This document shows positions 16,935-32,418 of a stretch of DNA of 64,000 nt, piece after piece. A model generated the notes under the pieces. It was not told where the DNA came from. It did no database searches and was given only the letters and a program-made list of their open reading frames with translations. Where the stretch lies: contig NZ_CAJKIS010000005.1 in NCBI RefSeq assembly GCF_905200055.1, positions 12,192-76,191 of the forward strand, in the 5' to 3' direction. This stretch comes from an uncultured Fusobacterium sp. (GTDB lineage: Bacteria > Fusobacteriota > Fusobacteriia > Fusobacteriales > Fusobacteriaceae). The position numbers and the translations under genes were made by a program. How positions within the stretch are numbered: the stretch's first letter is position 1; each line of letters begins with the position of its first letter.

Positions 16935-17276
16935 ATGAAAAAATATGTATGTGAAGTTTGTGGATATGTTTATGATCCTGCTATTGGTGATGTAGATCAC
17001 AATATTCCTGCTGGTACTGATTTTAATGATTTGCCTGATTCTTGGACTTGCCCTCCTTGTGGTGCTGATAAACATGCTTTTAGTGAATTAAAAACACATG
17101 AAACTACATTAGATGAAAAGTTTATTTGTGAAGTTTGTGGATATGTTTACGACCCTGCTATCGGTGATGTTGAACATGGTGTTCCTGTTGGTACTGCTTT
17201 TAATGACTTACCTGATTCTTGGACTTGCCCTCCTTGTGGTGCTGATAGACACGCTTTCAAAAAATTTGAATATTAA
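16935..17276 (+). CDS. Tandem (double) rubredoxin
   Basis: 113 aa with two repeats of [14 protein letters not shown]...WTCPPCGA, i.e. four CxxC pairs and two Fe sites. Confidence 0.9.
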
Positions 17277-17458: not shown

Positions 17459-17749
17459 TTATTTTTCTTCTCTTGTAGTTGTTGGAAGAATTCCTTCTAC
17501 TTCTGAATGAGGTCTAGGAATTACATGTACAGATATTAATTCTCCAACACGTTGAGCTGCTGCTGCTCCTGCATCTGTAGCTGCTTTAACTGCTCCAACG
17601 TCTCCTCTAACCATTACTGTAACTAGTCCTCCACCAATGTATTCTTTTCCTACTAGATATACGTTAGCTGCCTTTACCATAGCGTCTGCTGCCTCAATTG
17701 ATCCTATTAATCCTTTTGTTTCAATCATACCTAATGCATCATATTTCAT
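17459..17749 (-). CDS. BMC shell protein, BMC-H (PduA/EutM-like)
   Basis: 96 aa. [30 protein letters not shown] is the canonical BMC domain. Confidence 0.9.
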
Positions 17750-17794
17750 AATTTTATCCTCCTGTTTTTTACTTTTATTTTTTATTTATAATTT

Positions 17795-18439
17795 TTATTT
17801 TTCTTCTAAAATTGTAATTCTACTTTTTGAATTTAAACCAAAAGCATTTGCTTCTTCAACATCTAAATGACACTCTAAAGCTGAGGCAGTTGTTACTCTT
17901 ACTATTGTATTTTCTAAAACTCCTCCTCTTTCTCCAGTAACTTTTATTGCTACTTTGTCTCCATCTTTTACATTAAACTTTGTTGCATCTTCTGGAGTCA
18001 TGTGAATATGTCTTTGAGAAACTATAACACCTTCATGTAAATATATACTTCCTTTAGGTCCTACAACAGTTATTCCTGGAGTCCCTGTTATATCTCCTGA
18101 AAGTCTTACTACTGATTTTATTCCTAATTTTATACAGTCTCCTGCTGATACTTCTACTTGAGTATATTTTCTTTCTGGTCCTAAAACTCTTACTTTTTCT
18201 ATACAACCTTTAGGTCCACAAATAGTAACTGTTTCTTTACAAGCAAATTGTCCTACTTGTGATAAATCTTTTATTTTCTCAAAAGAATAATCTTTTCCAA
18301 ATAAAACTTCAACATGTTCTTTTGACAAATGTATATGTCTGTTTGAAATTCCAACAGGAATTGTTTTATCTTGTTTCTTTCTTTCTTCTATCAATCTAAA
18401 AATCTCTTCTAATAACTTTTCTAAATTTGGTGTTTCCAT
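17795..18439 (-). CDS. pduL: Phosphate acyltransferase PduL-like (two PduL repeats)
   Basis: 214 aa. Two repeats with NRHIHLS and SQRHIHMT metal-binding His motifs. Confidence 0.8.
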   Translation of the reverse strand: METPNLEKLLEEIFRLIEERKKQDKTIPVGISNRHIHLSKEHVEVLFGKDYSFEKIKDLSQVGQFACKETVTICGPKGCIEKVRVLGPERKYTQVEVSAGDCIKLGIKSVVRLSGDITGTPGITVVGPKGSIYLHEGVIVSQRHIHMTPEDATKFNVKDGDKVAIKVTGERGGVLENTIVRVTTASALECHLDVEEANAFGLNSKSRITILEEK

Positions 18440-18442
18440 TTC

Positions 18443-19945
18443 TTACCCCTTCATTGAAGCAACTATTTGATCTATTAGTCCTAATAACTCTTCTTTACCT
18501 AAGCTATTAATAGTCTCCTCAATATTTTCAAATCTTTCTTTACATTGATTTTTAACTTCAACGTTATGACTCATACTATTATTTAGTTTTAATTCATTAC
18601 TTTCAATTAAACCATAAGCCACTCTTTTTAAGTTTAAAAGGTGAAGTGGAGTTACGTTTTCTGAAACAGAACTTCCTCCCCATGTTCCACAACCTAATGT
18701 AAATGCTGGCATCAATCCTGTAGTTGCTCCTGTTCCTCCTTGAGAACCTCCTGCATTTACTAGAATTCTTGATGCTGGTTTTTTAGCAAATTTTCTAACT
18801 ACATTTTTATCCTCTGTATGAATACTCATTGTATGTCCAATTCCATTTTGAAGTAGTTCTATACTTAGTTCACATGCTTCGTGCCAATCATTAACTACAT
18901 AGAATCCTAATACAGTTGTAAGCTTTTCATATGATAATGGATATCCAGGTCCTACTCCATTTTGTCTTCCAACTAAAACTTTTGTTCCTTCTGGCACACA
19001 AATTCCAGCTTCTTTTGCAATATATTCAGCTGCTCTTCCTACAAATTTTGCATTCATTGCATGTCCTTGTTTAAATAATAGCTTACATACTTTAGCTGTT
19101 TCATCTTCGCTCATAAAGTATGCTCCTTGCTTTCTTAACTCACTGATTACTTCATTTTCATTACATTTTTCACAAACTATTGATTGTTCTGAAGCACATA
19201 TAGTACCATTATCAAAAGTTTTACTTGCAATAATTCTTTCTACTGCTTTTTGAACATTTGCTGTTCTTTCAATATAAGCTGGAGAGTTTCCTGCACCTAC
19301 TCCTAATGCTGGTTTTCCAGAACTATAAGCAGCTTTTACCATTCCTGGTCCTCCAGTTGCAATTATCATAGCAACTTCTGGAGCTTTCATTAATTCATTT
19401 GTTGCTTCCATAGTACAAATTTCTACACAGTTAATAATATCTTCTGGAGCTCCTGCTGCTATAGCAGCTTCTTTCATTAATCTTGCAGCTTCTCTAGTAC
19501 ATTTTTGAGCTGATGGATGTGGTGAAAATAAAATAGCATTTCTTGATTTTAGAGCTATTATAGATTTATAAATAGCTGTAGATGTTGGATTTGTTGAAGG
19601 TACTATTCCTAAAACAAGTCCCATAGGTTCTGCAACTGTTAATATTTTTTTCTCTTCATCTTCTTCTATAATATCTACTGTTTTCATATCTTTTATAGCT
19701 TCATAAACCATTGTAGATGCCATATGATTTTTAAATTCTTTATCTTGAACCTTTCCAAAACCTGTTTCTTCAACTGCCATTTTTGCTAAATAAAATCTAT
19801 TTTCTTCAGCAACTCTTACCATATTTTTTAAAATACATTCAACTTGTTCTTGAGTATATTCAGCCATTTTTGCTGCTGCAATTTTTCCTCTTCTTGCAAG
19901 GTCTCTTGCTCTTTGAATTGATTCCAAATCCTTATCAAATTCCAT
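18443..19945 (-). CDS. CoA-acylating aldehyde dehydrogenase (EutE/PduP/CutF-like), catalytically competent
   Basis: 500 aa. Catalytic Cys in FDNGTICASEQS and NAD-binding ATGGPGMV. The amphipathic C-terminal helix EELLGLIDQIVASM looks like an encapsulation peptide. Confidence 0.85.
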   Translation of the reverse strand: MEFDKDLESIQRARDLARRGKIAAAKMAEYTQEQVECILKNMVRVAEENRFYLAKMAVEETGFGKVQDKEFKNHMASTMVYEAIKDMKTVDIIEEDEEKKILTVAEPMGLVLGIVPSTNPTSTAIYKSIIALKSRNAILFSPHPSAQKCTREAARLMKEAAIAAGAPEDIINCVEICTMEATNELMKAPEVAMIIATGGPGMVKAAYSSGKPALGVGAGNSPAYIERTANVQKAVERIIASKTFDNGTICASEQSIVCEKCNENEVISELRKQGAYFMSEDETAKVCKLLFKQGHAMNAKFVGRAAEYIAKEAGICVPEGTKVLVGRQNGVGPGYPLSYEKLTTVLGFYVVNDWHEACELSIELLQNGIGHTMSIHTEDKNVVRKFAKKPASRILVNAGGSQGGTGATTGLMPAFTLGCGTWGGSSVSENVTPLHLLNLKRVAYGLIESNELKLNNSMSHNVEVKNQCKERFENIEETINSLGKEELLGLIDQIVASMKG

Positions 19946-20631
19946 TATTCTTCACCTCTTAAATTATAAAACTCTAGTATTCTATTTATTAAATTTTCCT
20001 TATTAAGTTTTGAAATTGTTCTGTTACTTAAATTTAGTTCTTGATATTCTTTCAGCAATTTTCTTAGTTCTGAAATTTTTAATATATTTAATTCAGAAAT
20101 TATTTCCTCTTTTTTATTCTCCCTTAAATATTCCTCAATATCTTTTCTAGTAAACTTTTTTTCTTCGATTGCTATTTCTATCTTTTCCTCTTCAACAATT
20201 TCCAGATTTTCTACTTGAGAATCAGCTTCTAAACTATCACTAAATATTTCATCTTCACTTTCTGTTTCTTCAATTTTTTCAACAACTATCTCTTTTTCTA
20301 AGATCTGTTCTTTAACTTCTACATCAGTTATATTTTCTTTTATCTCTTCTTTTTTTTGTCCAAATTCCATTATAGCTTTTAAATCTTCATGTGGTCTCGG
20401 GATAATATGTTCAGAAATTAAGAACTCCTCACCTAAAGTTTTTACTGCTGCAACACCTGCATCTACAGCTGCTCTAACTGCTCCCACATCTCCATTTACT
20501 ATTATTGTAACTAGTCCTCCACCAACATAAACTTTTTCTAAAATTTGAACATTTGCTGATTTTGTCATAGAATCTGCACTTTCAATAGCAGCTAACAATC
20601 CTTTTGTTTCAATCATTCCTATTGCCTGCAT
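19945..20631 (-). CDS. BMC-H shell protein with long acidic/basic C-terminal extension
   Basis: N-terminal BMC domain ([28 protein letters not shown]) followed by a ~130-aa E/K-rich tail. Confidence 0.8.
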   Translation of the reverse strand: MQAIGMIETKGLLAAIESADSMTKSANVQILEKVYVGGGLVTIIVNGDVGAVRAAVDAGVAAVKTLGEEFLISEHIIPRPHEDLKAIMEFGQKKEEIKENITDVEVKEQILEKEIVVEKIEETESEDEIFSDSLEADSQVENLEIVEEEKIEIAIEEKKFTRKDIEEYLRENKKEEIISELNILKISELRKLLKEYQELNLSNRTISKLNKENLINRILEFYNLRGEE

Positions 20632-20634
20632 CTA

Positions 20635-21300
20635 CTATTTCCCCTCCAAAATCAAATTTTCTCTAGTCCATGTAATTTTTTCAGAGATGGAAAAAAACTT
20701 AGCTCTCTCTTCTATATGAAAATTAATAGCTTTTACTGTTGAAGGAATATAAATAATATCTCCCTCTTTTCCTTCATAAGTTCTTTTATCTATTTCAAAG
20801 GAAACTTTTCCATCAGTGATATAAAGAATCTCTTCTGAGGCTATCTTCTTTAAAAAATTAGAGTTTTCTATCTCTAAAATAGTTGCTCTTTTCTCTTTAT
20901 CTTGTAAAACTTCTTGATATGAAATATTTACATTTTCATCTTTTATATGGTTAAAAGTCATATTTTTCCCTTTTATAAGAGTAAAACCTGACAAATCTTT
21001 TTCTTGATCAAAATTTTTCTTAGTCAATAAGCTCATTATTAAATCACGATATGTCTCTTCTTTAGCTAATAGTTTAAAAAAGTCTATAACCTTCTCCATA
21101 TCTATATCTTTAAATTCTCTTTTAGTGTCAGCAAATTTTTCTTTTAAAACTATTTCCATGTTATTATTTGCTATAATATCTTTAGCTGAAGGTGTTAAAA
21201 TAGTTTTAGAAGTTATATAAACTTTTTTTTCGCCTTTTTCCAAGATCTCTTCAATTTGGCTGGCACATATTAACTCTTTCATCTTTTCACACCCTTTCAC
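20635..21300 (-). CDS. EutQ-like cupin-domain protein
   Basis: 221 aa. C-terminal cupin-like GDIIYIPSTVKAINFHIEE. The position between the shell gene and EutN matches the EutQ context in GRM/eut loci. Confidence 0.5.
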   Translation of the reverse strand: MKGCEKMKELICASQIEEILEKGEKKVYITSKTILTPSAKDIIANNNMEIVLKEKFADTKREFKDIDMEKVIDFFKLLAKEETYRDLIMSLLTKKNFDQEKDLSGFTLIKGKNMTFNHIKDENVNISYQEVLQDKEKRATILEIENSNFLKKIASEEILYITDGKVSFEIDKRTYEGKEGDIIYIPSTVKAINFHIEERAKFFSISEKITWTRENLILEGK

Positions 21301-21302
21301 TA

Positions 21303-21572
21303 TTAATCAAGAATACAATCTGCATCTATTATTCCAACTACCACAGCATCTGCTGGAATCCTTTCATCATTAAACATCTCTCTTGCTGATGATCCTATCG
21401 AGATAATAACTCTATCTCCTATTCCAGCACCTATAATATCTGCAGCTATTATTCTTTTTCCTGTTCTTGATTCATCTCCAGTTAGTTCTTCAACTAATAA
21501 GAATTTTAAACCATTTAATTTTTCAGCTTTTCTTGTAGCCCAAACATTTGAAATTACCTTTGCAAGTATCAT
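21303..21572 (-). CDS. eutN: BMC vertex protein, BMC-P (EutN/PduN/CcmL family)
   Basis: 89 aa. MILAKVISNVWATRKAEKLNGLKFLLVEE is the typical EutN N-terminus. Confidence 0.9.
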   Translation of the reverse strand: MILAKVISNVWATRKAEKLNGLKFLLVEELTGDESRTGKRIIAADIIGAGIGDRVIISIGSSAREMFNDERIPADAVVVGIIDADCILD

Positions 21573-21582
21573 TTTTCCTCCC

Positions 21583-22428
21583 TTAATCTAAAATATTAGA
21601 AGTACAACTTAATGCTATTCCCAATGGTGTTACAAACATAGGGTTTTTAGGCTTATATGTATGGACTTTTGTATATTTTTCTATAATTTCTTCTATCCCT
21701 GTTAAACAGGCTGTTCCCCCAACTAAAGAGATACTATCAACATCATAACCATCTATATGATCCGCTATAATTGATGCGACTTTCTCTATAACAGGTTTTA
21801 ATACTGGTAATAACTCCTTATGATTCTTAGGATCTCTCTTATATTTATCTGCTTCTTCAAAATTCTTTCTATACATTCCAGAAATTACTAATGAAAAATG
21901 TGTTCCTCCAGTAGCTTCATCTGCAACTGCTATCACTTCTCCATTTTTTATTATAGAAGTTCCTGTAGTTCCTCCACCTATATCAACTACTGCACCATTT
22001 TGTAATTTTAAAACTTCATTAGCAGCTGTTGGCTCATCTAAAATATTTGTAAGTTCAAATCCTGCAGCTTGAACAACATTCTTTACAGCTCCTCCATCTA
22101 AACTATCTGTTCCTGGTGGAAGGGCTACTGCTGCATAAATTAATTCTGTTTGAAGTTTTTTCTCTAACTCCTCTTTCATCTCTCTAACTAATTTTATTGC
22201 ACCGATGTAATCAACTACCATTCCATCTTTGACAACATCTGCATATTTATATGCTCCTGCTACAGGTTTATAATTTTCATCTAGAACAGCTAAAACAACA
22301 CAAGCAGTTCCTAAATCAACTCCTGTATAATATACTGATGATTTTCTTAATATTGGTTTCTTTATAACTTTTTCAAACTCCTCTACTAATTCATCACAGT
22401 ATCTATAATCTATTTGTTTTTCTGACAC
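21583..22428 (-). CDS. eutJ: EutJ-like actin/Hsp70-fold ATPase
   Basis: 281 aa. Motifs GVDLGTACVVLAVLD and DIGGGTTGTSI. Confidence 0.85.
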   Translation of the reverse strand: MSEKQIDYRYCDELVEEFEKVIKKPILRKSSVYYTGVDLGTACVVLAVLDENYKPVAGAYKYADVVKDGMVVDYIGAIKLVREMKEELEKKLQTELIYAAVALPPGTDSLDGGAVKNVVQAAGFELTNILDEPTAANEVLKLQNGAVVDIGGGTTGTSIIKNGEVIAVADEATGGTHFSLVISGMYRKNFEEADKYKRDPKNHKELLPVLKPVIEKVASIIADHIDGYDVDSISLVGGTACLTGIEEIIEKYTKVHTYKPKNPMFVTPLGIALSCTSNILD

Positions 22429-23075
22429 TGTTCTCCTCCTAATAATTCAACTACTATATTAAAGATCTTGCTCTTCACATATTTTAAATTTTGAAGAAAG
22501 ATTTTCATATCATCATCAATTTCACTCTCTAAAATCTCTTCTTCTAAAAAGCTCATTTCATATAAAATAGAGTGTAACTTAAATATTCCCACTGCATTTT
22601 TATTGTGAATATAGATATCATGTATCTCTACATCTTCCAACATTATATTTTCTATTTTTTCTTCCTTTAAACTATTTTTCTTATTTAAACTTCTAAAGCT
22701 TCTAGCAACTTCTAAAAGTTTTTGAGCTAAAGGCATATTTTTTTCTAAATTCTCAGATACTAAAGAAAAAAGTTGTGATTCAAAAGATTTGATTTTATAG
22801 ACATATTTGCTTTTTTTCAAGTTAATTTTTTCTTCTACTTTTATAATATTGATATTTTTATTAAATTTAACTTGTTCCTTCTTTGGTTCTTTAACTTTCT
22901 CTATCTCTTTTTTTATCTCTTCTTTTTCCTCTTTATTTTCTACTTTTATTCTTTTATCTACTAAAAATTGTCGCCCTCCTGGAGTTAATCTTTGCTCCTT
23001 TTCTAATTTAAAAATTTCAAAGGGCGTTTTTTTATATATTTCTCTTAAATATTGTTCGGTAATAAATTTAAGCAT
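22410..23075 (-). CDS. Hypothetical K/E-rich protein conserved in the BMC operon
   Basis: 221 aa with no recognisable catalytic motif. Overlaps eutJ by 19 nt and sits directly downstream of the activase. Confidence 0.4.
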   Translation of the reverse strand: MLKFITEQYLREIYKKTPFEIFKLEKEQRLTPGGRQFLVDKRIKVENKEEKEEIKKEIEKVKEPKKEQVKFNKNINIIKVEEKINLKKSKYVYKIKSFESQLFSLVSENLEKNMPLAQKLLEVARSFRSLNKKNSLKEEKIENIMLEDVEIHDIYIHNKNAVGIFKLHSILYEMSFLEEEILESEIDDDMKIFLQNLKYVKSKIFNIVVELLGGEQCQKNK

Positions 23076-23113: not shown

Positions 23114-24064
23114 TTAATGTCTTATAACTTTTACAGACATACCACTATTTTTTATGTACCCTTCTATTCTTTCTAAATCTTCAGATGACAAGCTTGGGTC
23201 CTCTTTTATAGCATATTCCATTCCTAACTGGTTATATTTATTAACTCCCATCTTATGATAAGGTAATAAATCTACACCTTTTAAGTTTTTATAATTTTTA
23301 TACGGTAACAAAAGCTCAACTAATTTTTCTATATCTTCTTTGCTATCGTTTACTCCTTTTAATAAAGGAAGTCTTATATGAACATTATATTTATTCTCTA
23401 ATAAATACTTTAGATTTTTTATAATCTGTTCATTTCTTACTCCAGTCCAATAAAAATGCTTTTCAGAATCTATCTGTTTTAAGTCAAAAAGAAACAGATC
23501 TACAAATTCAGCAACTTTTTCTATAACACTGCTTGAGGTATATCCACAAGTTTCAATAGCTGTATTGATTCCTTCATTCTTACATGCCATTAATAAACTT
23601 AGTGCTGCTTCTGGTTGCATTAAAACTTCTCCACCTCCAAGAGTAACTCCCCCTCCTGAAGTCTCGTAAAAAGGTCTATCCTCTTCTACTATTTTTAAGA
23701 TTTCTGAAATGCTTTTTTGTTCCCCAACTATACTAATAGCTGAATTATAACAAGCCTCTTCACATTTTCTACAACCTATACAATCTGTAGTCCTGTCTAT
23801 AAGATGAGTGCCATCTGCACTCATCTTATGTACTCCTACAGGACAAACATTTACACAAGCACCACAGTCTTGACATAGATTCTTTTTAAAAAGCACTCTA
23901 CTTTTTTTCATTAATCCTTCAGGATTTGCACACCATTTACATCTCAATGGACACCCTTGGAAAAAAACTAATGTTCTTACTCCCGGTCCATCATACATGT
24001 TATATTTTTGTATATTAAATATAGTGGCTTTCCTTTCTATAAGACTATTCTGCTCTTTATTCAT
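23114..24064 (-). CDS. cutD: Glycyl-radical enzyme activating enzyme (radical SAM, CutD/PflA family) with extra ferredoxin-like clusters
   Basis: 316 aa. CPLRCKWCANPE radical-SAM motif plus CQDCGACVNVCP...CIGCRKCEEAC auxiliary cluster motifs. Confidence 0.85.
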   Translation of the reverse strand: MNKEQNSLIERKATIFNIQKYNMYDGPGVRTLVFFQGCPLRCKWCANPEGLMKKSRVLFKKNLCQDCGACVNVCPVGVHKMSADGTHLIDRTTDCIGCRKCEEACYNSAISIVGEQKSISEILKIVEEDRPFYETSGGGVTLGGGEVLMQPEAALSLLMACKNEGINTAIETCGYTSSSVIEKVAEFVDLFLFDLKQIDSEKHFYWTGVRNEQIIKNLKYLLENKYNVHIRLPLLKGVNDSKEDIEKLVELLLPYKNYKNLKGVDLLPYHKMGVNKYNQLGMEYAIKEDPSLSSEDLERIEGYIKNSGMSVKVIRH

Positions 24065-24082: not shown

Positions 24083-26620
24083 TTAAAAATGTGTTAATAC
24101 AGTTCTACTAATAATCTCATCTTGTACATCTTTACATAGTTCAACAAAGTATGCACTATATCCTGCAACACGTACTATTAGATCTCTATGAGCTTCTGGA
24201 TTAATTTGAGCATCTTTTAACACTTTATTATCTAAGTAGTTAAATTGCATCTCTCCAAGTTGTAACATACATGCTGTACGTAACAATGTGATTATTCCAT
24301 TTTCTCCCTCTGGAGTTTCTAGTAGTCCAGATATTAGTTTGAAGTTATGAACCATTCCAATATTCATATTATCACAAGACATTTTTGATACTGATTTAAT
24401 TATAGCTGTAGGTCCTTTTGTATCTGAACCTTGGCTTGGACTGATTCCATCTGATAATGGTGTCCATGCTTTACGTCCATTTGCTGTAGCTCCTGTTAAT
24501 TGTCCAAATGGAGTATTGTTAGAAATTGATAGTGTTCCATGACTTAACACAGAGTATAGTGTCTTATATTTTCTGTGTTCCATCTCTGTAAAGTTAATTA
24601 GATCAGTTGCTATATAGTCAGCATAGTCATCATCGTTTCCATATTTTGGAGCTTCTATACAATCTTTTCTAACTTTTTCATATCCTACAAAGTCAGCTTT
24701 AAGTGCATCTCTTATCTCTTTTAAAGTATATTTTTTATCATCAAATACTAATTTTTTAATTGCTGCCATTGAGTCAACATAAGTTGCTAGTCCACTCCAT
24801 ACAACTCCTGGTCCAAAGTTATACATAGCTCCACCAGCTTCTACTCCTCTACCTTTTTCCATACATCCTTCATACATTAATGACATTAAAGGTTTTGGTG
24901 CTACTTCTCTGTGAACTCTTTGAGATATTACAGTTGCTATACTTGTCCATTTTGTTATATATTTAATTTGTTCTTTTACTGCTGCATCAAATTCTTCATA
25001 AGTTTTAAATTGATCTAAATCTCCTAGATCTGGACAAACTTGTTTTCCATACCATAGAGGTACTCCATTATTTAACACAAGCTCTATACAAATAGGCCAT
25101 TGTGTATATCCTGTTGATGTCCATTGATATAATCTTCCAGCTTTTTGAGGTTCAACACATCCCATTAAGCAATAATCTCTTGCATCTTCTATAGATACAC
25201 CTTTTGCTAGCATCATTTTGATATGTACATCATCAAAGTGACAAGCTGGGAATCCTAATCCTGCTTTAATTACTTGAACAATTTTCTTTAAGTAAGCGTT
25301 TGGTGATCCTTTGTGAATACGACATGCTAATGATGGTTGGTATACTTTTACATGTCTTACAGCATCCATTAATAAGTATGTTAAATCATTTGTAGCATCT
25401 ACTCCTGATCTAGTAACTCCTCCTACACACATATTTACAAATGGTTGATATCCTGCGAAGAATTTAGATCCTCCTTCACTTGTGATCCACATAACTTCAG
25501 ACATTTTTATAAGCATACATCCTGCTAATTCAAATGCTTCAAATTTTGACATTCTTCCACTTTCAATATCAGCTTTAAAGAATGGATACATATATTGGTC
25601 AACACGTCCAATTGACATTCCTGTTTGGTTTTCTTCTACTACTAAAAGTGATTCTATTGTCCAAACTGCTTGAATTGCTTCCCAGAAAGTTGTAGGTTTA
25701 TGTGCTGGAACTCTTGCGTTAACTTCAGAAATTTTTAGTAGTTCAGCTTTTCTTTTTGGATTTGTTTCTTTTGCAGCTAATTCAGCAGCGTAATCTGATA
25801 GACGCTTAGCATATATCATTACCCCTTCAGCTGTATCTATTATTGATTTATAGAAATAGATCTTATCAATATCTTCTGGATTAGCATATGATAAAGTTTC
25901 TAATTTTTCTTCTGCTTCTCTTTTAATATCAAGCATTCCTTTTTTCATTAATATTACGTCATATCCTGGATTTGAGTCTCCTCCTCCATTAACTGCATGA
26001 TATGAACAATCTGAAACAAAAGATTCTCCTGATAATTCCCATACTCCAGCTTCTCTATATTGATCTTCACAATACTCATCTACTGATTTTCCTCTCCAGA
26101 ATGGGAAGATTTGCTCTCTTAAAACTTTTTTATCTTCTTCAGATATATAGAACGGATCTTGAGGTCTTTTTCCAATTGTATCTAATTCAGTTTCCATCCA
26201 TCTCCAAGCAATATCTGGAGAAAATGCTCCTGCTCTAGGTGCTCCATTAGGACATCCTACGATTAACTCATTATCTTGAATAACTAGAGGAGCTGTTTCA
26301 CAACAATGTTTAAAACTTTTTCCTCTTAAAATAGCTTTTGGCATTCCTGGATTTTCTTGAGCTATTTTAGTGATAACTTTTGCTCTGTGTATTGTTATTG
26401 ATGGAACTTGTTTAAGATAATTTTCTCTTAATCTTTTTAATCTTTCAGTTATTCCTTCTGGAACTTCTGTTTCACAATGGTCTGAACAACAATGGTGTCC
26501 AGCTTCTTTTCTTATTTCATTAGAAACTCCTTGAAACATCTTTAATAAAGCTTCACGTTCTTCATTAGACATATTTTCTGTAGCTTCCATAAATTTATTT
26601 AAAAATTCACGAATTTCCAT
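24083..26620 (-). CDS. cutC: Glycyl radical enzyme, choline trimethylamine-lyase (CutC)-like
   Basis: 845 aa. Glycyl radical motif RVAGY (Gly820). Cys loop GCVEP (C488/E490). T501, Y505, F394, Y207 and D215 are all at CutC-numbering minus 1. Carries the ~50-aa N-terminal extension typical of CutC. Confidence 0.7.
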
Positions 26621-26633
26621 TTCTTCCTCTCCT

Positions 26634-28058
26634 TTACTTTAGTATTGTTTTTATAATCTCTTTAAGTTTTTCTTCTAAATTTTTATTTTTTAAAATCTCT
26701 TCTACTTTTCTTACTCCGTATCCAACTTTTCTAATATAGATTAGATTTCTAGGAGAAACATTACAAGAAGTTATTCCCTTTCCTATTACTCCACTTCCCA
26801 AAGTCATAGCTGGAAAAAGATTAGTTGTTATTCCTAAGCTACCAAAACTTCCTCCAGTATTTACTAAAACTCTTCCAACTGGTTTTTTCAATATAAATTG
26901 TTCTATTATATTTTCATCCTGAGAGTGTATTATTAATGTATGTCCTTGTTTATCACTTAATAAAAGTTCTATACATTTTTCACAAGCATTTTTCCAATCC
27001 TCTTCTACATAAAGATCAAGTACTGGACAAAGCTTTTCTTTAGAATATTCACTATCTAATGTTAAATATTTTTCATTAGTTATTAATAACTTCACATTTT
27101 TTTCTACTTTTATTCCAGCTTTCTCTGCTAAAAATTGTGAACTTTTTCCTATATAGTTTTTATTAAATTTTCCAAATTTATCAAAAATAATCTCTTTTAA
27201 TCTCTTAGATTCCTCTTCATTTAGGAAATAAGCATTATTTTTTATAAACTCTTTTTTTACCTCTTCCAAGATAACCTTTTCTACAACTATTATCTCTTCA
27301 CTTCCAGGAATAATACCATTATCAAAAGTTTTACTATCTACTATATTTTTTACTGCTTCTTTGATATCTGCTGTTCTTTCTATAAATACTGGACTATCTC
27401 CATTTCCACCATAGATATATGATTTCCCACTTGTTTTTATCTCATCTAAAAGTTCATCTATCCCAGTATTTAATATAAGATTTATATCTTTATGATTTAA
27501 CAGCTCTTTGCTTCCATTTAGTGAACATCTACTTATATAAGAGATAATACCTTGAGGTGCTCCTGATTTTTCTATAATATCTATAATTGTATCCATAACT
27601 TTTTTAGTAGTTTTTTTAGCTTTCTTAGACATTCCAAAAACTATTCCATTTCCTGATTTAATAGCTATTATACTCTTATAAATTAGAGTGGAAACTATAT
27701 TGGCTTCTGAACAAAAAGCTGCAATTACTCCTACAGGAACACCAACATCTAAAGTTTTATCTTCTTTATTATTTTCAATTACTCCTACACATCTCATATT
27801 TTTTAAAGCTTTTTCTAAATTATTTAAAAACAATTCTAGTTTTAATTTTTTATCTTCAACATTTCCTATCTCTGTTTCCTCATAATCTAGTTTTGCAAAC
27901 TCTTCAATATGATCTTTTATTTCTTTAAAAATATTATTTACAATGAAATCTAGTTGTTCTTGAGAGAAATTTTTTACTATTTTCTGTGCTTCTCTTGCAT
28001 TTTCAACTAATATTCTTGCCTCTTGCATAGAAAGTAAGTCGTTATCTATAATATCCAT
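26634..28058 (-). CDS. Aldehyde-dehydrogenase-fold paralogue lacking the catalytic cysteine (putative non-catalytic/scaffold BMC protein)
   Basis: 474 aa. Aligns to the 500-aa AldDH, but the catalytic-Cys motif TICASEQ is IIPGSEE here and the GGPGMV NAD-binding motif is GIDELL. The amphipathic C-terminus [14 protein letters not shown] is retained. Confidence 0.7.
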
Positions 28059-28080: not shown

Positions 28081-28404
28081 CTATAAATTTTCAATAGCAT
28101 ATCTATCTATTATCTTTTGTAAATCATTGTGTGGTCTAGCAATTACTACTGAACTATATAAATTTCCACCTTCCATATTATTTACAGCATATACTCCTGC
28201 ATCAACTGCTGCTTTACAAGCTCCTACATCTCCAGTTACAATTACAGATATATACCCTGATGCAACATTTTCATATCCAACTAGTTCAACATCTGCTGCT
28301 TTACACATAGCATCTGCTGCTTCTAGAGCAAATACCAGTCCAAATGTTTCTATTAATCCTATTGCTTCACGTCTTATCATATCCCTACTCCTTCTATTCT
28401 CCAT
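28081..28404 (-). CDS. BMC shell protein, BMC-H
   Basis: 107 aa. BMC domain IGLIETFGLVFALEAADAMCKAADV. Confidence 0.85.
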   Translation of the reverse strand: MENRRSRDMIRREAIGLIETFGLVFALEAADAMCKAADVELVGYENVASGYISVIVTGDVGACKAAVDAGVYAVNNMEGGNLYSSVVIARPHNDLQKIIDRYAIENL

Positions 28405-28693
28405 CTATATCATGAACTGAAACTATTTTTCCTACTTCACTAATAGGTCTTGGCATAACATTTTTTGCTGTAAGTGTACCAATTGCTTTTGCTGCTGCTG
28501 CTCCAGCTTCAACTGCTGCTGTTACTGCTGCCACATCACCTTTTATCATTATTGTTACCAATGTAGAACCTATATTTTCATAAGATACAAGTTCTACGTT
28601 TGCTGCTTTTAGCATCTTATCTGCTGCATCTAAAGCTGGAACTAATCCTATTGTTTCTACAAGCCCTAATGCTTCATTTCCATAATATTTCAT
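28394..28693 (-). CDS. BMC shell protein, BMC-H
   Basis: 99 aa. BMC domain LGLVETIGLVPALDAADKMLKAANV. Confidence 0.85.
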   Translation of the reverse strand: MKYYGNEALGLVETIGLVPALDAADKMLKAANVELVSYENIGSTLVTIMIKGDVAAVTAAVEAGAAAAKAIGTLTAKNVMPRPISEVGKIVSVHDIDGE

Positions 28694-28709: not shown

Positions 28710-28976
28710 TTAGTCCTTTATAAAGCTATTTATTGTTTTTTTACTTTCTTCACTTGCTTGATAATAGATAATTAATTCCCCATCATCACTTAAATCTGCT
28801 GCTACCTCTTCTATTAATCCGTTTGCTTCTGCTGTTAAAAGAGCATCTTTTATATCTTTTTTATTAAATGCTTTAAAAGATGAATATTCATTTTTTAATG
28901 CTTCCATCACATCATTTGCTGATGCTTTAGAAACTTTTGTAAAATATTTTAATATAGCATAATTTAATGGTTTCAT
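28710..28976 (-). CDS. Small (88 aa) protein of unknown function, translationally coupled to the upstream permease
   Basis: Start trimmed to MKPLNYAILKYF, preceded by AGGAGG. Its ATG overlaps the TAA of the permease (TAATG). The longer ORF-track version overlaps the permease and is probably wrong. Confidence 0.5.
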   Translation of the reverse strand: MKPLNYAILKYFTKVSKASANDVMEALKNEYSSFKAFNKKDIKDALLTAEANGLIEEVAADLSDDGELIIYYQASEESKKTINSFIKD

Positions 28977-30070
28977 TAATTTTCCTCCTTTTTCTTGAAA
29001 AAATCTAATGGATTTACAGCAATTAATAATATTCCAAAGATCATAACTACTGCTCCTATCCAAGCAACTGTTGGTAAGTTCCAACCATCAATTCCTGAAA
29101 TAACTCCTAAAAATAACCAACAGAAGAAAGGACTAAAGAATGAATAAGTTCCATTACATGCTGTTCCAAGTCCTGCTCCACACATACTGTTTCCTTTATA
29201 CCAAGTCATAAATGAAACAAATGTTGACAATCCACTTAATGCAAACCAGATCATTGCTGGCATACTTGTTAATGCTTGGATAGTTAAAGAAGTTGAAATA
29301 TCAATTCCTCCTGCCATTACTCCAATTGCTGGTACAACTATGAAAAGGTTTACTATTCCACAAGTCAATTGTCTTACACAAATTCCAATTTGAGTGTCAA
29401 CCATTGCTGAAGCATATCCAGCTACACAACCTTCAAATCCCCAACCAAATGCTGCTATAATTGCAATAACAAGACCTAATAGAAGTTCTGTTGAGAAGTT
29501 CTCTCCCATTCCTGTACTACCAATCATGAAACTAGCAAAAACACAAATTCCGATTCCTAAAGCCATTCTTTTATTTATCTCTTGTTTATAAAAGATTTTT
29601 CCTAAAATAGCTGCTATTGCAGGACATAATGCTGAAATTGGAACTATTATTGATCCTGCCATTTGTAGTGCCACAACAAATGCTGTTCCTGCTATTGGTC
29701 CTCCTATTAATGCTGCAAGCATAATTTGTTTACCAGGTTTTGTATTTAGTGTTCTTAGAAAATCTTGAAATTTTCCTTGATATATTGAGTTTAATATCGC
29801 CCAAAATGAACTTGAAATATCATTTATTGCATTTCCTAAAGCTGCTAGAAGATAAACTATTACAAATGCTGAAAGTCCTGCTGTGTTTTCTCCATACCAG
29901 TCTGACCATACTCCTTTTGTCATTCCCAATGTTAAGCATGCTGTATAAATACCATATGTTATTCCAGAAAATAACGCTATTTGTATTCCCTTCTTTAAAA
30001 ATTTATTCTTAACTTCAGCCTTCAATTTAAGAATTTTTATTTCTTTTTCCGTTAATTCACTGTTGATCAT
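28976..30070 (-). CDS. Polytopic (about 10 TM) permease of unrecognised family, first gene of the BMC operon (candidate substrate transporter)
   Basis: 364 aa, strongly hydrophobic with Gly-rich helices (GGPIAGTAFVVAL, CGAGLGTACNG). Does not resemble BCCT or EutH sequences I know. Confidence 0.5.
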   Translation of the reverse strand: MINSELTEKEIKILKLKAEVKNKFLKKGIQIALFSGITYGIYTACLTLGMTKGVWSDWYGENTAGLSAFVIVYLLAALGNAINDISSSFWAILNSIYQGKFQDFLRTLNTKPGKQIMLAALIGGPIAGTAFVVALQMAGSIIVPISALCPAIAAILGKIFYKQEINKRMALGIGICVFASFMIGSTGMGENFSTELLLGLVIAIIAAFGWGFEGCVAGYASAMVDTQIGICVRQLTCGIVNLFIVVPAIGVMAGGIDISTSLTIQALTSMPAMIWFALSGLSTFVSFMTWYKGNSMCGAGLGTACNGTYSFFSPFFCWLFLGVISGIDGWNLPTVAWIGAVVMIFGILLIAVNPLDFFKKKEEN

Positions 30071-30332
30071 CTAACTCCTCCTAAAAAATATTAATATTAT
30101 TTTTAAATTATTCTAATTTAGACTAAAAGGTTGGCTTAAATCTTTTTCAAATTTATTATAGACCTTCCATTTAAGGTTAAAGTCAAATATTTTTTCATTT
30201 TTTATGATAGTTCTTTTATAGAACGTTAACTTCTAAAATTATTCTTTTATTTCTTTTTCAAAATTAATTAAAGTGTCATTTTGGTAAATTAATGTCTGAT
30301 TTTTATTTTTGTATATATTTTTAGTCAAAATT

Positions 30333-30404
30333 AAAACCTTCCATATAGGTGGAAGGTTTTGATTTTATATAATAAAAAAGACCTTAATACTTTTACTAAG
30401 GTCT
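30333..30404 (-). terminator. Two tandem palindromic terminators downstream of the merR-type gene
   Basis: AAAACCTTCCATATAGGTGGAAGGTTTT at 30333-30360 and AGACCTTAATACTTTTACTAAGGTCT at 30379-30404, both flanked by A/T runs. Confidence 0.55.
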
Positions 30405-30416
30405 TTTTATACTAAA

Positions 30417-31241
30417 TTATTGTATTTTTAATTTCACCATTATCTCTGTAACATACTTTTGTTCATCTTTTGTGCTCCAATAATCAATCACATATCTTTC
30501 AAAACATATATCATCATATTTATAGTTATGGTATTTCAACCAATCTTTTATTTTTTTATATGTTTCATCAATATTTTCATGTGATCCTATATGATAAGCT
30601 GAAGCCACCATATAACCACCATATTTAGTTAATTTATCACTTGAACATTTTTTTAAATTTTTCTGTAAAATTCTTACTTTTTTACATTTCTTTTCTATCT
30701 TTTCATCAAAAGAAGGAAACTCTATAATGACTGGGCCTGTTATTGCATTTTCTATCTTTTCAATGTAATTTGTAAATTCTATATTTATAACAGATTTTAC
30801 ATAATCATAGTCATAATCTTGTTCTAAAAAAAGCATCTCAGCTTCTTCTAAAAACTTTATTTTAACATCTTGAATATCATATTCTATAACCATTTTTGCT
30901 TCTCTAACTAATGAATACCAATCTTCTATAGATTTTTTCTTTAAATTCAATTCCTCTTCTATTGATTGCAACTCTTTAATTTTTTCTCCAAAATCTTCTT
31001 CTATTGTTGAAAATCCAGAACTATAAATCAATGATTTTATTTGATCAAGAGTAAATCCACTTTGTTTATAATATTTTATTACTGGTATTGTATATAAATT
31101 ATCCTTATCATAATAACGATAACCATTTTCATTTATTTCACAAGGAGATAACAAACCAATTTGATCATAAAATCTCAATGTTTTTTTTCCTATTTTACAT
31201 ATCTTTTCCACTTTTCCTATGCAATATTTTTTCTCACTCAT
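30417..31241 (-). CDS. MerR-family transcriptional regulator with C-terminal GyrI-like effector domain
   Basis: 274 aa. N-terminal MerR HTH (YCIGKVEKICKIGKKTLRFYDQIGLLSP). Confidence 0.75.
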   Translation of the reverse strand: MSEKKYCIGKVEKICKIGKKTLRFYDQIGLLSPCEINENGYRYYDKDNLYTIPVIKYYKQSGFTLDQIKSLIYSSGFSTIEEDFGEKIKELQSIEEELNLKKKSIEDWYSLVREAKMVIEYDIQDVKIKFLEEAEMLFLEQDYDYDYVKSVINIEFTNYIEKIENAITGPVIIEFPSFDEKIEKKCKKVRILQKNLKKCSSDKLTKYGGYMVASAYHIGSHENIDETYKKIKDWLKYHNYKYDDICFERYVIDYWSTKDEQKYVTEIMVKLKIQ

Positions 31242-31272
31242 TATCTCACCACAGCATTCAATTTTTTATTTT

Positions 31273-32418
31273 CTAGCCAATTACTTTGTCTAAAATTTTA
31301 TAAATTTCTTCTTGAGATACTTTCTTAGGATTAGATTTTGTACATACATCTTTTTCTAATGCTCTATACACTTCTTCTTTAAATATATTTATATCTTCTA
31401 TATTTTTCCCAAGTTCCTTTAAGTTTTTAGGAATTCCTAATTTTTTATTTAATTCAGATATATATCTCACTAAATTATTGGCTCCTATTATAGGATTACA
31501 TGAATTTAACCCTATAATTTTTGCTAATTTTTGATATTTTTTAGTCACTAAATTACAATTCTCTCCAACATAAGATGTTACTTTACAATCTGAATTATAC
31601 TCAATTACATAAGGCAAAATAATAGCATTTATCTTTCCATGTGGAATATGAAGTTTTCCTCCTATTGCATGAGCTAAACTATGTGTTATTCCTAACCCAG
31701 CATTATTAAATGCTAATCCTGCTAAACATGAGGCATTATGCATTCTCTCACGATAATATAAATTTTCACCTTCTAAGTAAGCTTTTTCTAGATTTTCTAT
31801 AGCTAAACTAAAAGCTTTTTCTGCAAAGGCATCTGTAAAATCATTTGCTCCATTTGAGACATAAGCTTCTATTGCATGAGTTATTACATCCATTCCTGTA
31901 TCTGCTGTTATACTTTTTGGTACACTTTTAATTAAATCTGCATCTAAAATAGCAACTGTTGGTAATAATTCCTTTGAAGTTAAAGCATATTTAAGATGTT
32001 CTGCTTCATTTGTAATAACAGAATATTCTGTTACTTCTGATCCTGTTCCACTAGTAGTAGGAATTGCATAAAATTCAATTTTTTTAGAATGATCTTTATT
32101 TAATTTATTATAATACTCTCTTATAGCCTTTGCTCCATCAATTGAAGATCCTCCACCTAAAGCTATAATTAAATCGATATTTTCATTCTTTAAAACTTGA
32201 ACTCCCATTGCTACTATTTTTACTGTAGGATCTGGTATTACCTCATCAAATACTGCTACATTACAGTTGTGAATATAATTTTTAACTTTTTCAACCATCC
32301 CAGAACTATTAATAAACTTATCGCATACTATTAAAATATTTTTATCAACAAGTTCCCCTAATTTTTTTAAAGCCTCTTCACCAAAACAAATTGTAGTGCT
32401 AATAGTAAATTCTTGCAT
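31273..32418 (-). CDS. Iron-containing alcohol dehydrogenase (CutO/PduQ/EutG-like)
   Basis: 381 aa. Fe-ADH motifs GGGSSIDGAK and H-x3-H in the metal site region. Confidence 0.85.
   Translation of the reverse strand: MQEFTISTTICFGEEALKKLGELVDKNILIVCDKFINSSGMVEKVKNYIHNCNVAVFDEVIPDPTVKIVAMGVQVLKNENIDLIIALGGGSSIDGAKAIREYYNKLNKDHSKKIEFYAIPTTSGTGSEVTEYSVITNEAEHLKYALTSKELLPTVAILDADLIKSVPKSITADTGMDVITHAIEAYVSNGANDFTDAFAEKAFSLAIENLEKAYLEGENLYYRERMHNASCLAGLAFNNAGLGITHSLAHAIGGKLHIPHGKINAIILPYVIEYNSDCKVTSYVGENCNLVTKKYQKLAKIIGLNSCNPIIGANNLVRYISELNKKLGIPKNLKELGKNIEDINIFKEEVYRALEKDVCTKSNPKKVSQEEIYKILDKVIG

Follow-up and report, generated by a model that had tools for sequence, protein, structure and literature searches.

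A cysteine-less aldehyde dehydrogenase paralogue, CutB, in a type I choline microcompartment operon of Fusobacterium: a candidate structural cargo protein

Choline microcompartments produce trimethylamine, the precursor of TMAO, itself studied as a disease risk factor, and the way in which their enzymatic core is assembled is for that reason of practical interest. In 2014, GRM1 loci were described that possess a second, likely inactive aldehyde dehydrogenase (AldDH) lacking the catalytic cysteine, with serine or proline in its place, for which a role as scaffold or regulator was suggested (Axen 2014, PMC4207490). The corresponding gene was named cutB one year later, and type II (GRM2) clusters were shown to be devoid of it (Martinez-del Campo 2015, PMC4453576). 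More recently, a "putatively inactive second copy" has been marked in both GRM1A and GRM1B loci (Sutter 2021, PMC8217296). CutB is present in every type I cluster, and its role has been an explicitly stated question since 2014. A search of the literature for functional, structural or proteomic work on this protein was negative.

Related systems provide some clues regarding this role. In the GRM2 type, CutF is a tetramer which cross-links CutC through an N-terminal dead-GRE domain carried by CutC itself and enlarges the core (Kalnins 2020, PMC6971018). The GRM1 CutC is devoid of this N-terminal domain, and GRM1 loci have CutB instead. This complementarity between the dead-GRE domain in GRM2 and CutB in GRM1 is suggestive, as a correlation only. 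Like CutB, the dead-GRE domain is a dead cargo-enzyme fold kept in the gene set of the organelle. Inactive enzyme domains found in carboxysome proteins (cited by Axen 2014, PMC4207490) are likewise dead enzyme folds, and for such folds a role in core assembly has been either proposed or shown. CutB differs from both in having an AldDH fold and in forming a polypeptide of its own, and its organising role is a putative one. If CutB were a dedicated scaffold, it would be to the metabolosome what the organiser proteins are to the carboxysome.

The gene analyzed here is found in a window of 64,000 nucleotides from an uncultured Fusobacterium sp. (contig NZ_CAJKIS010000005.1), to which all the coordinates below refer. 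It occupies positions 26634..28058 on the minus strand as a single open reading frame with an ATG start, which encodes a 474-residue cysteine-less paralogue of CoA-acylating aldehyde dehydrogenases matching Pfam Aldedh and PDB 3k9d. Its start codon is preceded by a good Shine-Dalgarno sequence (GAAGGTGA), and its end is separated by 13 nt from the start codon of the GRE gene cutC, with an AAGGAG motif inside the gap. A first-pass annotation of this window, made from the sequence alone, had placed the gene directly upstream of a GRE without giving its strand; this placement holds, both genes being on the minus strand. An exact-sequence look-up identified the protein as WP_294706856.1 (uncultured Fusobacterium sp.).

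The surrounding genes identify the locus. Downstream of cutB, cutC (24083..26620, minus strand) codes for an 845-residue choline trimethylamine-lyase, a GRE scoring 1639 bits on TIGR04394 against a cut-off of 1050 and matching PDB 5fau with E = 0, and is followed by cutD (23114..24064, minus strand), coding for the radical SAM enzyme which activates CutC (545.6 bits on TIGR04395, cut-off 360). From residue 20 onward, CutC aligns with the D. alaskensis enzyme (5fau, 849 aa), and its N-terminal extension is short, unlike the ~350-residue one of the GRM2 type. Beyond cutD, the operon continues on the minus strand (17459..23075) with genes for a 221-residue protein, an EutJ-like protein, EutN (BMC-P), an EutQ-like protein, a 228-residue BMC-domain protein, CutF, a PduL-type phosphotransacylase and a BMC-H protein. 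This cutF-type gene (18443..19945, minus strand), about 8 kb from cutB, encodes a 500-residue active acetylating AldDH which has the catalytic cysteine, an EP-like C-terminal helix and a TIGR02518 score of 770 bits. Directly upstream of cutB are two BMC-H shell genes (28081..28404 and 28394..28693, minus strand), preceded, also on the minus strand, by a segment (28710..32418) encoding an 88-residue protein, an EamA-type transporter, a MerR/GyrI-like regulator and an iron-type alcohol dehydrogenase. With BMC-H and BMC-P shell genes, a core comprising AldDH, alcohol dehydrogenase and phosphotransacylase, and CutC with its activase, the locus is a complete and canonical type I cut, or GRM1, choline microcompartment operon.

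Several less familiar genes of this operon deserve mention. The 88-residue open reading frame flanked by the genes for the EamA transporter and the first BMC-H protein (28710-28976, minus strand) belongs to no Pfam family (best E = 0.05), and distant GRM1 loci (L081-L089) have a gene of 87-93 residues in this place. The mechanical list of open reading frames extends it to 124 residues from a TTG start, which is probably wrong. The 221-residue protein, encoded between cutD and the EutJ-like gene (22410-23075, minus strand), is rich in lysine and glutamate and matches neither Pfam nor NCBIfam. It could be recognized in only 11 of 80 related loci, with ~30% identity, which points to very fast evolution, and in one distant locus (L086) a gene of 207 residues with no Pfam match is located just before the EutJ-like gene. 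The 228-residue BMC-domain protein (19945-20631, minus strand) has an acidic C-terminal extension of ~150 residues rich in Glu, Ile and Lys, and is unusually long for a BMC-H protein. The regulator, a MerR-family protein with a GyrI-like ligand-binding domain, is encoded upstream of the genes for the transporter and the shell (30417-31241, minus strand), and a regulator of this type is found in the same place in two distant loci (L086 and L088). This protein likely regulates the locus and possibly responds to choline. Finally, just past the end of the operon and on the opposite strand, a tandem two-domain rubredoxin is encoded (16935-17276, plus strand; Pfam Rubredoxin, E = 1e-42, two copies). 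This protein may carry electrons of relevance to CutD activation, or its position could be due to chance.

By whole-domain sequence and fold similarity, CutB is a member of the CoA-acylating branch of the ALDH superfamily. It matches Pfam PF00171 (Aldedh) with E = 8e-20, and its best solved relatives are two acetylating AldDHs, 3k9d (E = 1.6e-108 over residues 1-457) and 5j78. It also aligns along its length with the 500-residue AldDH of the operon (BLASTP: 37% identity over 457 residues, 2 gaps, E = 2e-107), as the first-pass annotation had noted. On TIGR02518, the acetylating-AldDH equivalog, it scores 474.3 bits and remains below the cut-off of 620.1, whereas the neighbouring enzyme passes with 770.1. 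CutB shares with the active EutE-type enzymes (3k9d, 5j78), PduP (5jfl-5jfn) and Cphy1178 (4c3s) the fold (TM 0.80-0.90), the length and the architecture of the terminal encapsulation peptide. Unlike them, it has a proline instead of the catalytic cysteine, altered ATGGxxxV, GVGxGN and TLGCG motifs and, as mentioned, a TIGR02518 score below the cut-off.

The replacement of the catalytic cysteine can be located precisely. The former active-site loop of CutB spans residues 245-255 (27294..27326, minus strand) and aligns without gaps to FDNGTICASEQ of the neighbouring AldDH, 3k9d and 5j78. In each of these three alignments, the column of the catalytic cysteine is filled by Pro251, with the top posterior probability, as the Cys-to-Pro change claimed at first pass implied. 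The corresponding codon, CCT (27306..27308, minus strand), is two base changes away from any cysteine codon, so Pro251 is not a sequencing slip. The protein contains seven cysteine residues (90, 116, 178, 344, 359, 362 and 432), and none of them aligns in the catalytic column. Cys344 was considered as a relocated nucleophile and dropped, as only 24% of the clade to which CutB belongs has it.

The cofactor-binding elements have degenerated as well. NTGIDELL (residues 197-204; 27447..27470, minus strand) replaces the ATGGxxxV loop and pairs with ATGGPGMV of the neighbouring AldDH, in agreement with the first-pass reading of GGPGMV as changed to GIDELL. In Cphy1178, the counterpart of this loop (P219, G220 and V221) closes on the adenine of NAD, and the Asn160-Pro161-His162 stretch contacts NAD and CoA through their phosphates (PMC4762007). 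By motif matching, FGMSKK of CutB (residues 141-146; 27621..27638, minus strand), which replaces the FSPHPS motif, would correspond to the latter stretch. None of the four NAD/CoA motifs ATGGxxxV, SPHP, GVGxGN and TLGCG is intact in the CutB of the window, SPHP reading GMSK and TLGCG reading TLGSG. The GHT, EKL and N-terminal helix motifs are retained as in active BMC AldDHs. The N-terminal region had been singled out at first pass as conserved; the motif is indeed present, but it is common to active EutE-type enzymes and not special to CutB. Having lost both the thiol nucleophile and most of the cofactor motifs, CutB is predicted from its sequence to be unable to oxidise acetaldehyde.

These features are those of an entire clade. 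Among the 120 nearest homologues (53-99% identity), all 120 are devoid of the catalytic cysteine, which is replaced by serine (the commonest residue in clostridia), proline (a minority which includes the present lineage) or, rarely, alanine, and all have a cofactor loop of the NTGVxxxL type. A rough neighbour-joining tree was built from 127 near-full-length sequences, namely 126 representatives of 50%-identity clusters and the query. In this tree, the cysteine-less sequences found in a GRM1 context form, together with the query, one large and very divergent clade, and the cysteine column of the 127 sequences contains 32 prolines versus 3 serines. Some divergent cysteine-less clusters, with xNGLLPGAEQ and ILGGLT motifs, were considered as members of another BMC type. 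This possibility was rejected for three of them (P0128, P0134 and P0158; 35-41% identity), which occur in the order EamA, small open reading frame, BMC-H, BMC-H, AldDH, CutC and are therefore CutB too.

Since the gene codes for an AldDH whose cysteine has been replaced, in a BMC locus containing cutC, cutD and a second, cysteine-containing AldDH, and shares the clade and synteny of its counterparts, it is cutB and encodes the non-catalytic AldDH-fold paralogue found in type I cut/GRM1 choline microcompartment operons. A cysteine-less AldDH having been described as CutB in 2014-2015, the initial observation, although correct, is not new, and neither is its interpretation. The present protein can be likened by description to CutB of the type I cut clusters of Desulfovibrio desulfuricans and D. 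alaskensis, which is cysteine-less and encoded in a BMC choline cluster beside active CutF, CutC and CutD; the sequences compared here came from GRM1 loci of clostridia (among them C. ljungdahlii, L063), Cetobacterium and others. Nothing essential differs from the described CutB, apart from the copy belonging to Fusobacterium, which is less frequently mentioned in connection with GRM1. Compared to its clostridial orthologues, it is the proline variant, has a shorter linker (474 versus ~495 aa) and shows additional decay of PSTNP and SPHP. It is an ordinary CutB, with slightly more erosion than its clostridial orthologues, and the present analysis makes small additions to what is known: the decay of the cofactor motifs across the clade, a dN/dS value of 0.19 and a pair of cysteine residues at positions 359 and 362.

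The extent of this decay was assessed by comparing 33 divergent CutB clusters with 86 active ones. Lost in the CutB clade are Cys251, the ATGGxxxV loop (in 97% of the CutB clusters), G216/V217 of GVGxGN (in 100%, n = 33), T119/P121 of PSTNP, K73, K128 and G423, while a second active-site cysteine at position 422 (TLGCG) falls from 84% of the active clusters to 3% of the CutB ones. Among 57 positions conserved in the superfamily, 43 are kept in the CutB of the window, versus a median of 55 in active enzymes, 47-49 in the clostridial Ser-type CutB and 19-33 in the most divergent members. Other positions have been kept in the 33 CutB clusters: G248, E254 and N400 in 100%, P251 and R396 in 91%, His373 in 79% and Glu341 in 67%. 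The best conserved motif of the clade is the former active-site loop itself (xNGxxPGxEQ).

This pattern bears on whether CutB could bind, without turnover, NAD(H), CoA or acetaldehyde and act as a buffer or a sensor. The strong conservation of the xNGxxPGxEQ loop and the retention of N400, R396 and, often, His373 and Glu341 speak for such a cofactor- or metabolite-binding pseudoenzyme, a retained ligand pocket fitting the conserved loop together with His373 and Glu341 as well as a purely structural role does, and the pocket-forming fold appears intact in a structural model of CutB. However, the loop which closes on the NAD adenine has been lost nearly throughout the clade and G216/V217 in all clusters, GMSK stands in the CutB of the window in place of SPHP, which by motif matching corresponds to the residues contacting the phosphates of NAD and CoA in Cphy1178, and confidence in the model is lowest for the active-site loop at residues 420-431. 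Clade-wide decay of the cofactor motifs argues against a cofactor store. We regard this explanation as unlikely, and the suggestion made at first pass of NAD or CoA binding for recycling loses strength.

The clade has also a signature of its own, a CxxC pair (CEKC, Cys359 and Cys362; 26973..26984, minus strand) on a predicted helix spanning residues 355-368. Cys359 is present in 100% of the 33 CutB clusters versus 14% of the active ones, and Cys362 in 94% versus 45%. An N-terminal DxDLxSxQxxR motif, W355, C359 and E360 were each considered as CutB-specific and rejected, as they are shared with CutF of the window and with 3k9d and are hence features of the subfamily instead of CutB novelties. 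The CxxC pair typical of the clade, along with purifying selection and the serine found at the cysteine position in many clostridial orthologues, could suggest that CutB is still an enzyme, using another nucleophile or catalyzing a different reaction. Proline cannot be a nucleophile, though, and occupies this position in 91% of the divergent CutB clusters, no cysteine residue aligns in the catalytic column, the cofactor motifs have decayed, and the CxxC pair, judging from the ALDH fold, would lie on a helix of the catalytic domain away from the pocket. An enzymatic function of this kind seems highly improbable.

Conservation of gene order was analyzed by scanning species-representative genomes, in which 580 relatives were found and 80 loci retained, the species of the window itself not being among the matches. 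The order BMC-H, BMC-H, CutB, CutC, CutD is observed in 78 of the 78 retained loci which extend far enough, and synteny with CutC is preserved even in the divergent cysteine-less clusters having 35-41% identity (L085-L087). Checking whether orthologous GRM loci carry the same dead paralogue, as proposed at first pass, had accordingly a clear outcome: it is cysteine-less in every one of the 120 nearest homologues and keeps its position in all the informative loci. The sequence itself diverges rapidly, with a median identity to the 80 retained loci of 57% for CutB, compared to 84% for CutC, 72% for CutD and 79-85% for the BMC-H proteins. Relative to a sister species, dN/dS is 0.19 for CutB (dS 0.58, unsaturated), higher than for the transporter (0.07), CutC (0.04) and BMC-H (0.015). 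CutB is hence under selection, albeit about five times more relaxed than CutC.

That CutB is the fastest-evolving core gene of the locus among those with calculated identities, and that the conserved positions have been lost to varying degrees over the clade (from 49 down to 19 of 57 kept), speaks for a decaying remnant devoid of function. Against this, its dN/dS indicates selection, the open reading frames are intact and full-length in 580 genome stretches, and the operon position, the ribosome-binding site and the C-terminal helix are all conserved. In C. ljungdahlii, moreover, where an AldDH gene likewise immediately precedes GRE1, a transcript table shows that choline induces this gene 2^7.2-fold (PMC12016505). 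A functionless remnant is hardly credible and is effectively refuted by selection and synteny. Collectively, the loss of cysteine in all 120 homologues, the failure on TIGR02518, the dN/dS value and the conserved position uphold the initial view of a dead AldDH paralogue retained in a BMC operon.

Regarding its structure, an AlphaFold model of CutB based on an alignment of 121 sequences has a pLDDT of 87 and a pTM of 0.86, and superimposes on 3k9d with a TM-score of 0.90 (rmsd 2.4 A over 450 columns). A first model, obtained with 20 sequences, was discarded (pLDDT 72.6, TM 0.45 to 3k9d). Confidence is lowest at residues 330-340 and in the old active-site loop (420-431). Outside the 450 columns aligned to 3k9d, a helix is predicted at residues 459-473, which corresponds to the amphipathic C-terminal helix, a candidate encapsulation peptide, encoded at 26637..26684 on the minus strand. 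Its hydrophobic moment ranks third among 460 windows, a value reached by 0.1% of shuffles. In CutB homologues, a low-complexity linker of variable length, short in the present lineage, precedes a conserved LLxxILKKIL helix. The tail of CutB has what looks like the usual anatomy of an encapsulation peptide, and both its amphipathic character and its conservation were correctly recognized at first pass. The EP-like tail of the GRM2 CutF did not give encapsulation on its own in a recombinant system (PMC6971018); since that tail is not sufficient, an EP-like helix is no proof of targeting.

Based on these data, we consider it moderately probable that CutB has no catalytic role and serves the choline microcompartment as a structural, or cross-linking, cargo protein. 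According to this proposal, CutB is co-transcribed with CutC and made just before it. As the whole acylating-AldDH fold has been kept, including the oligomerisation elements, CutB is probably a dimer or a tetramer like its active relatives. The C-terminal linker and amphipathic helix would most likely direct it to the lumen of the shell, where it would most likely act as a multivalent structural cargo which cross-links or organises the core around CutC and possibly CutF. This cross-linking is modelled on the GRM2 system, in which it is the tetrameric AldDH CutF that cross-links CutC. "Scaffold or cargo organiser" appears as the better of the two functional ideas put forward at first pass.

Tight association with CutF alone has also to be considered, CutB being in that case an obligate hetero-oligomer partner of the active enzyme, that is, a dead regulatory subunit tuning its activity or stoichiometry. 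The two proteins have a common fold, including the oligomerisation strands, along with 37% identity; both end with an EP-like helix, and an active AldDH co-occurs with CutB in the window and in the loci which extend far enough. However, it is to cutC that cutB is linked, cutF being ~8 kb away, and CutB diverges faster than CutF: among three Fusobacteriaceae loci, CutF is 72-74% identical versus 57-61% for CutB in the same genome pairs, which, though compatible with a tightly co-evolving interface, would be unexpected for it. This rival has, in our estimate, a rather low probability.

A more speculative reading is that CutB gained a new function. The dead loop (xNGxxPGxEQ), along with the frequently retained His373, and the CxxC pair would then form a ligand- or redox-sensing module, through which the state of the lumen in terms of acetaldehyde, CoA or redox would influence how CutC/CutD are organised or activated. 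Although we deem it very unlikely, such a module, if real, would bear on the supply of reducing power and the upkeep of glycyl-radical compartments.

Finally, the genes of this operon evolve at very uneven rates. CutC of the window is 77-87% identical to CutC of the 80 retained loci, which are mostly clostridial, while the adjacent CutB is 53-61% identical, and this CutC falls in a 90% cluster represented by a Clostridium moniliforme sequence. It is possible that Fusobacterium received this locus from Clostridia.
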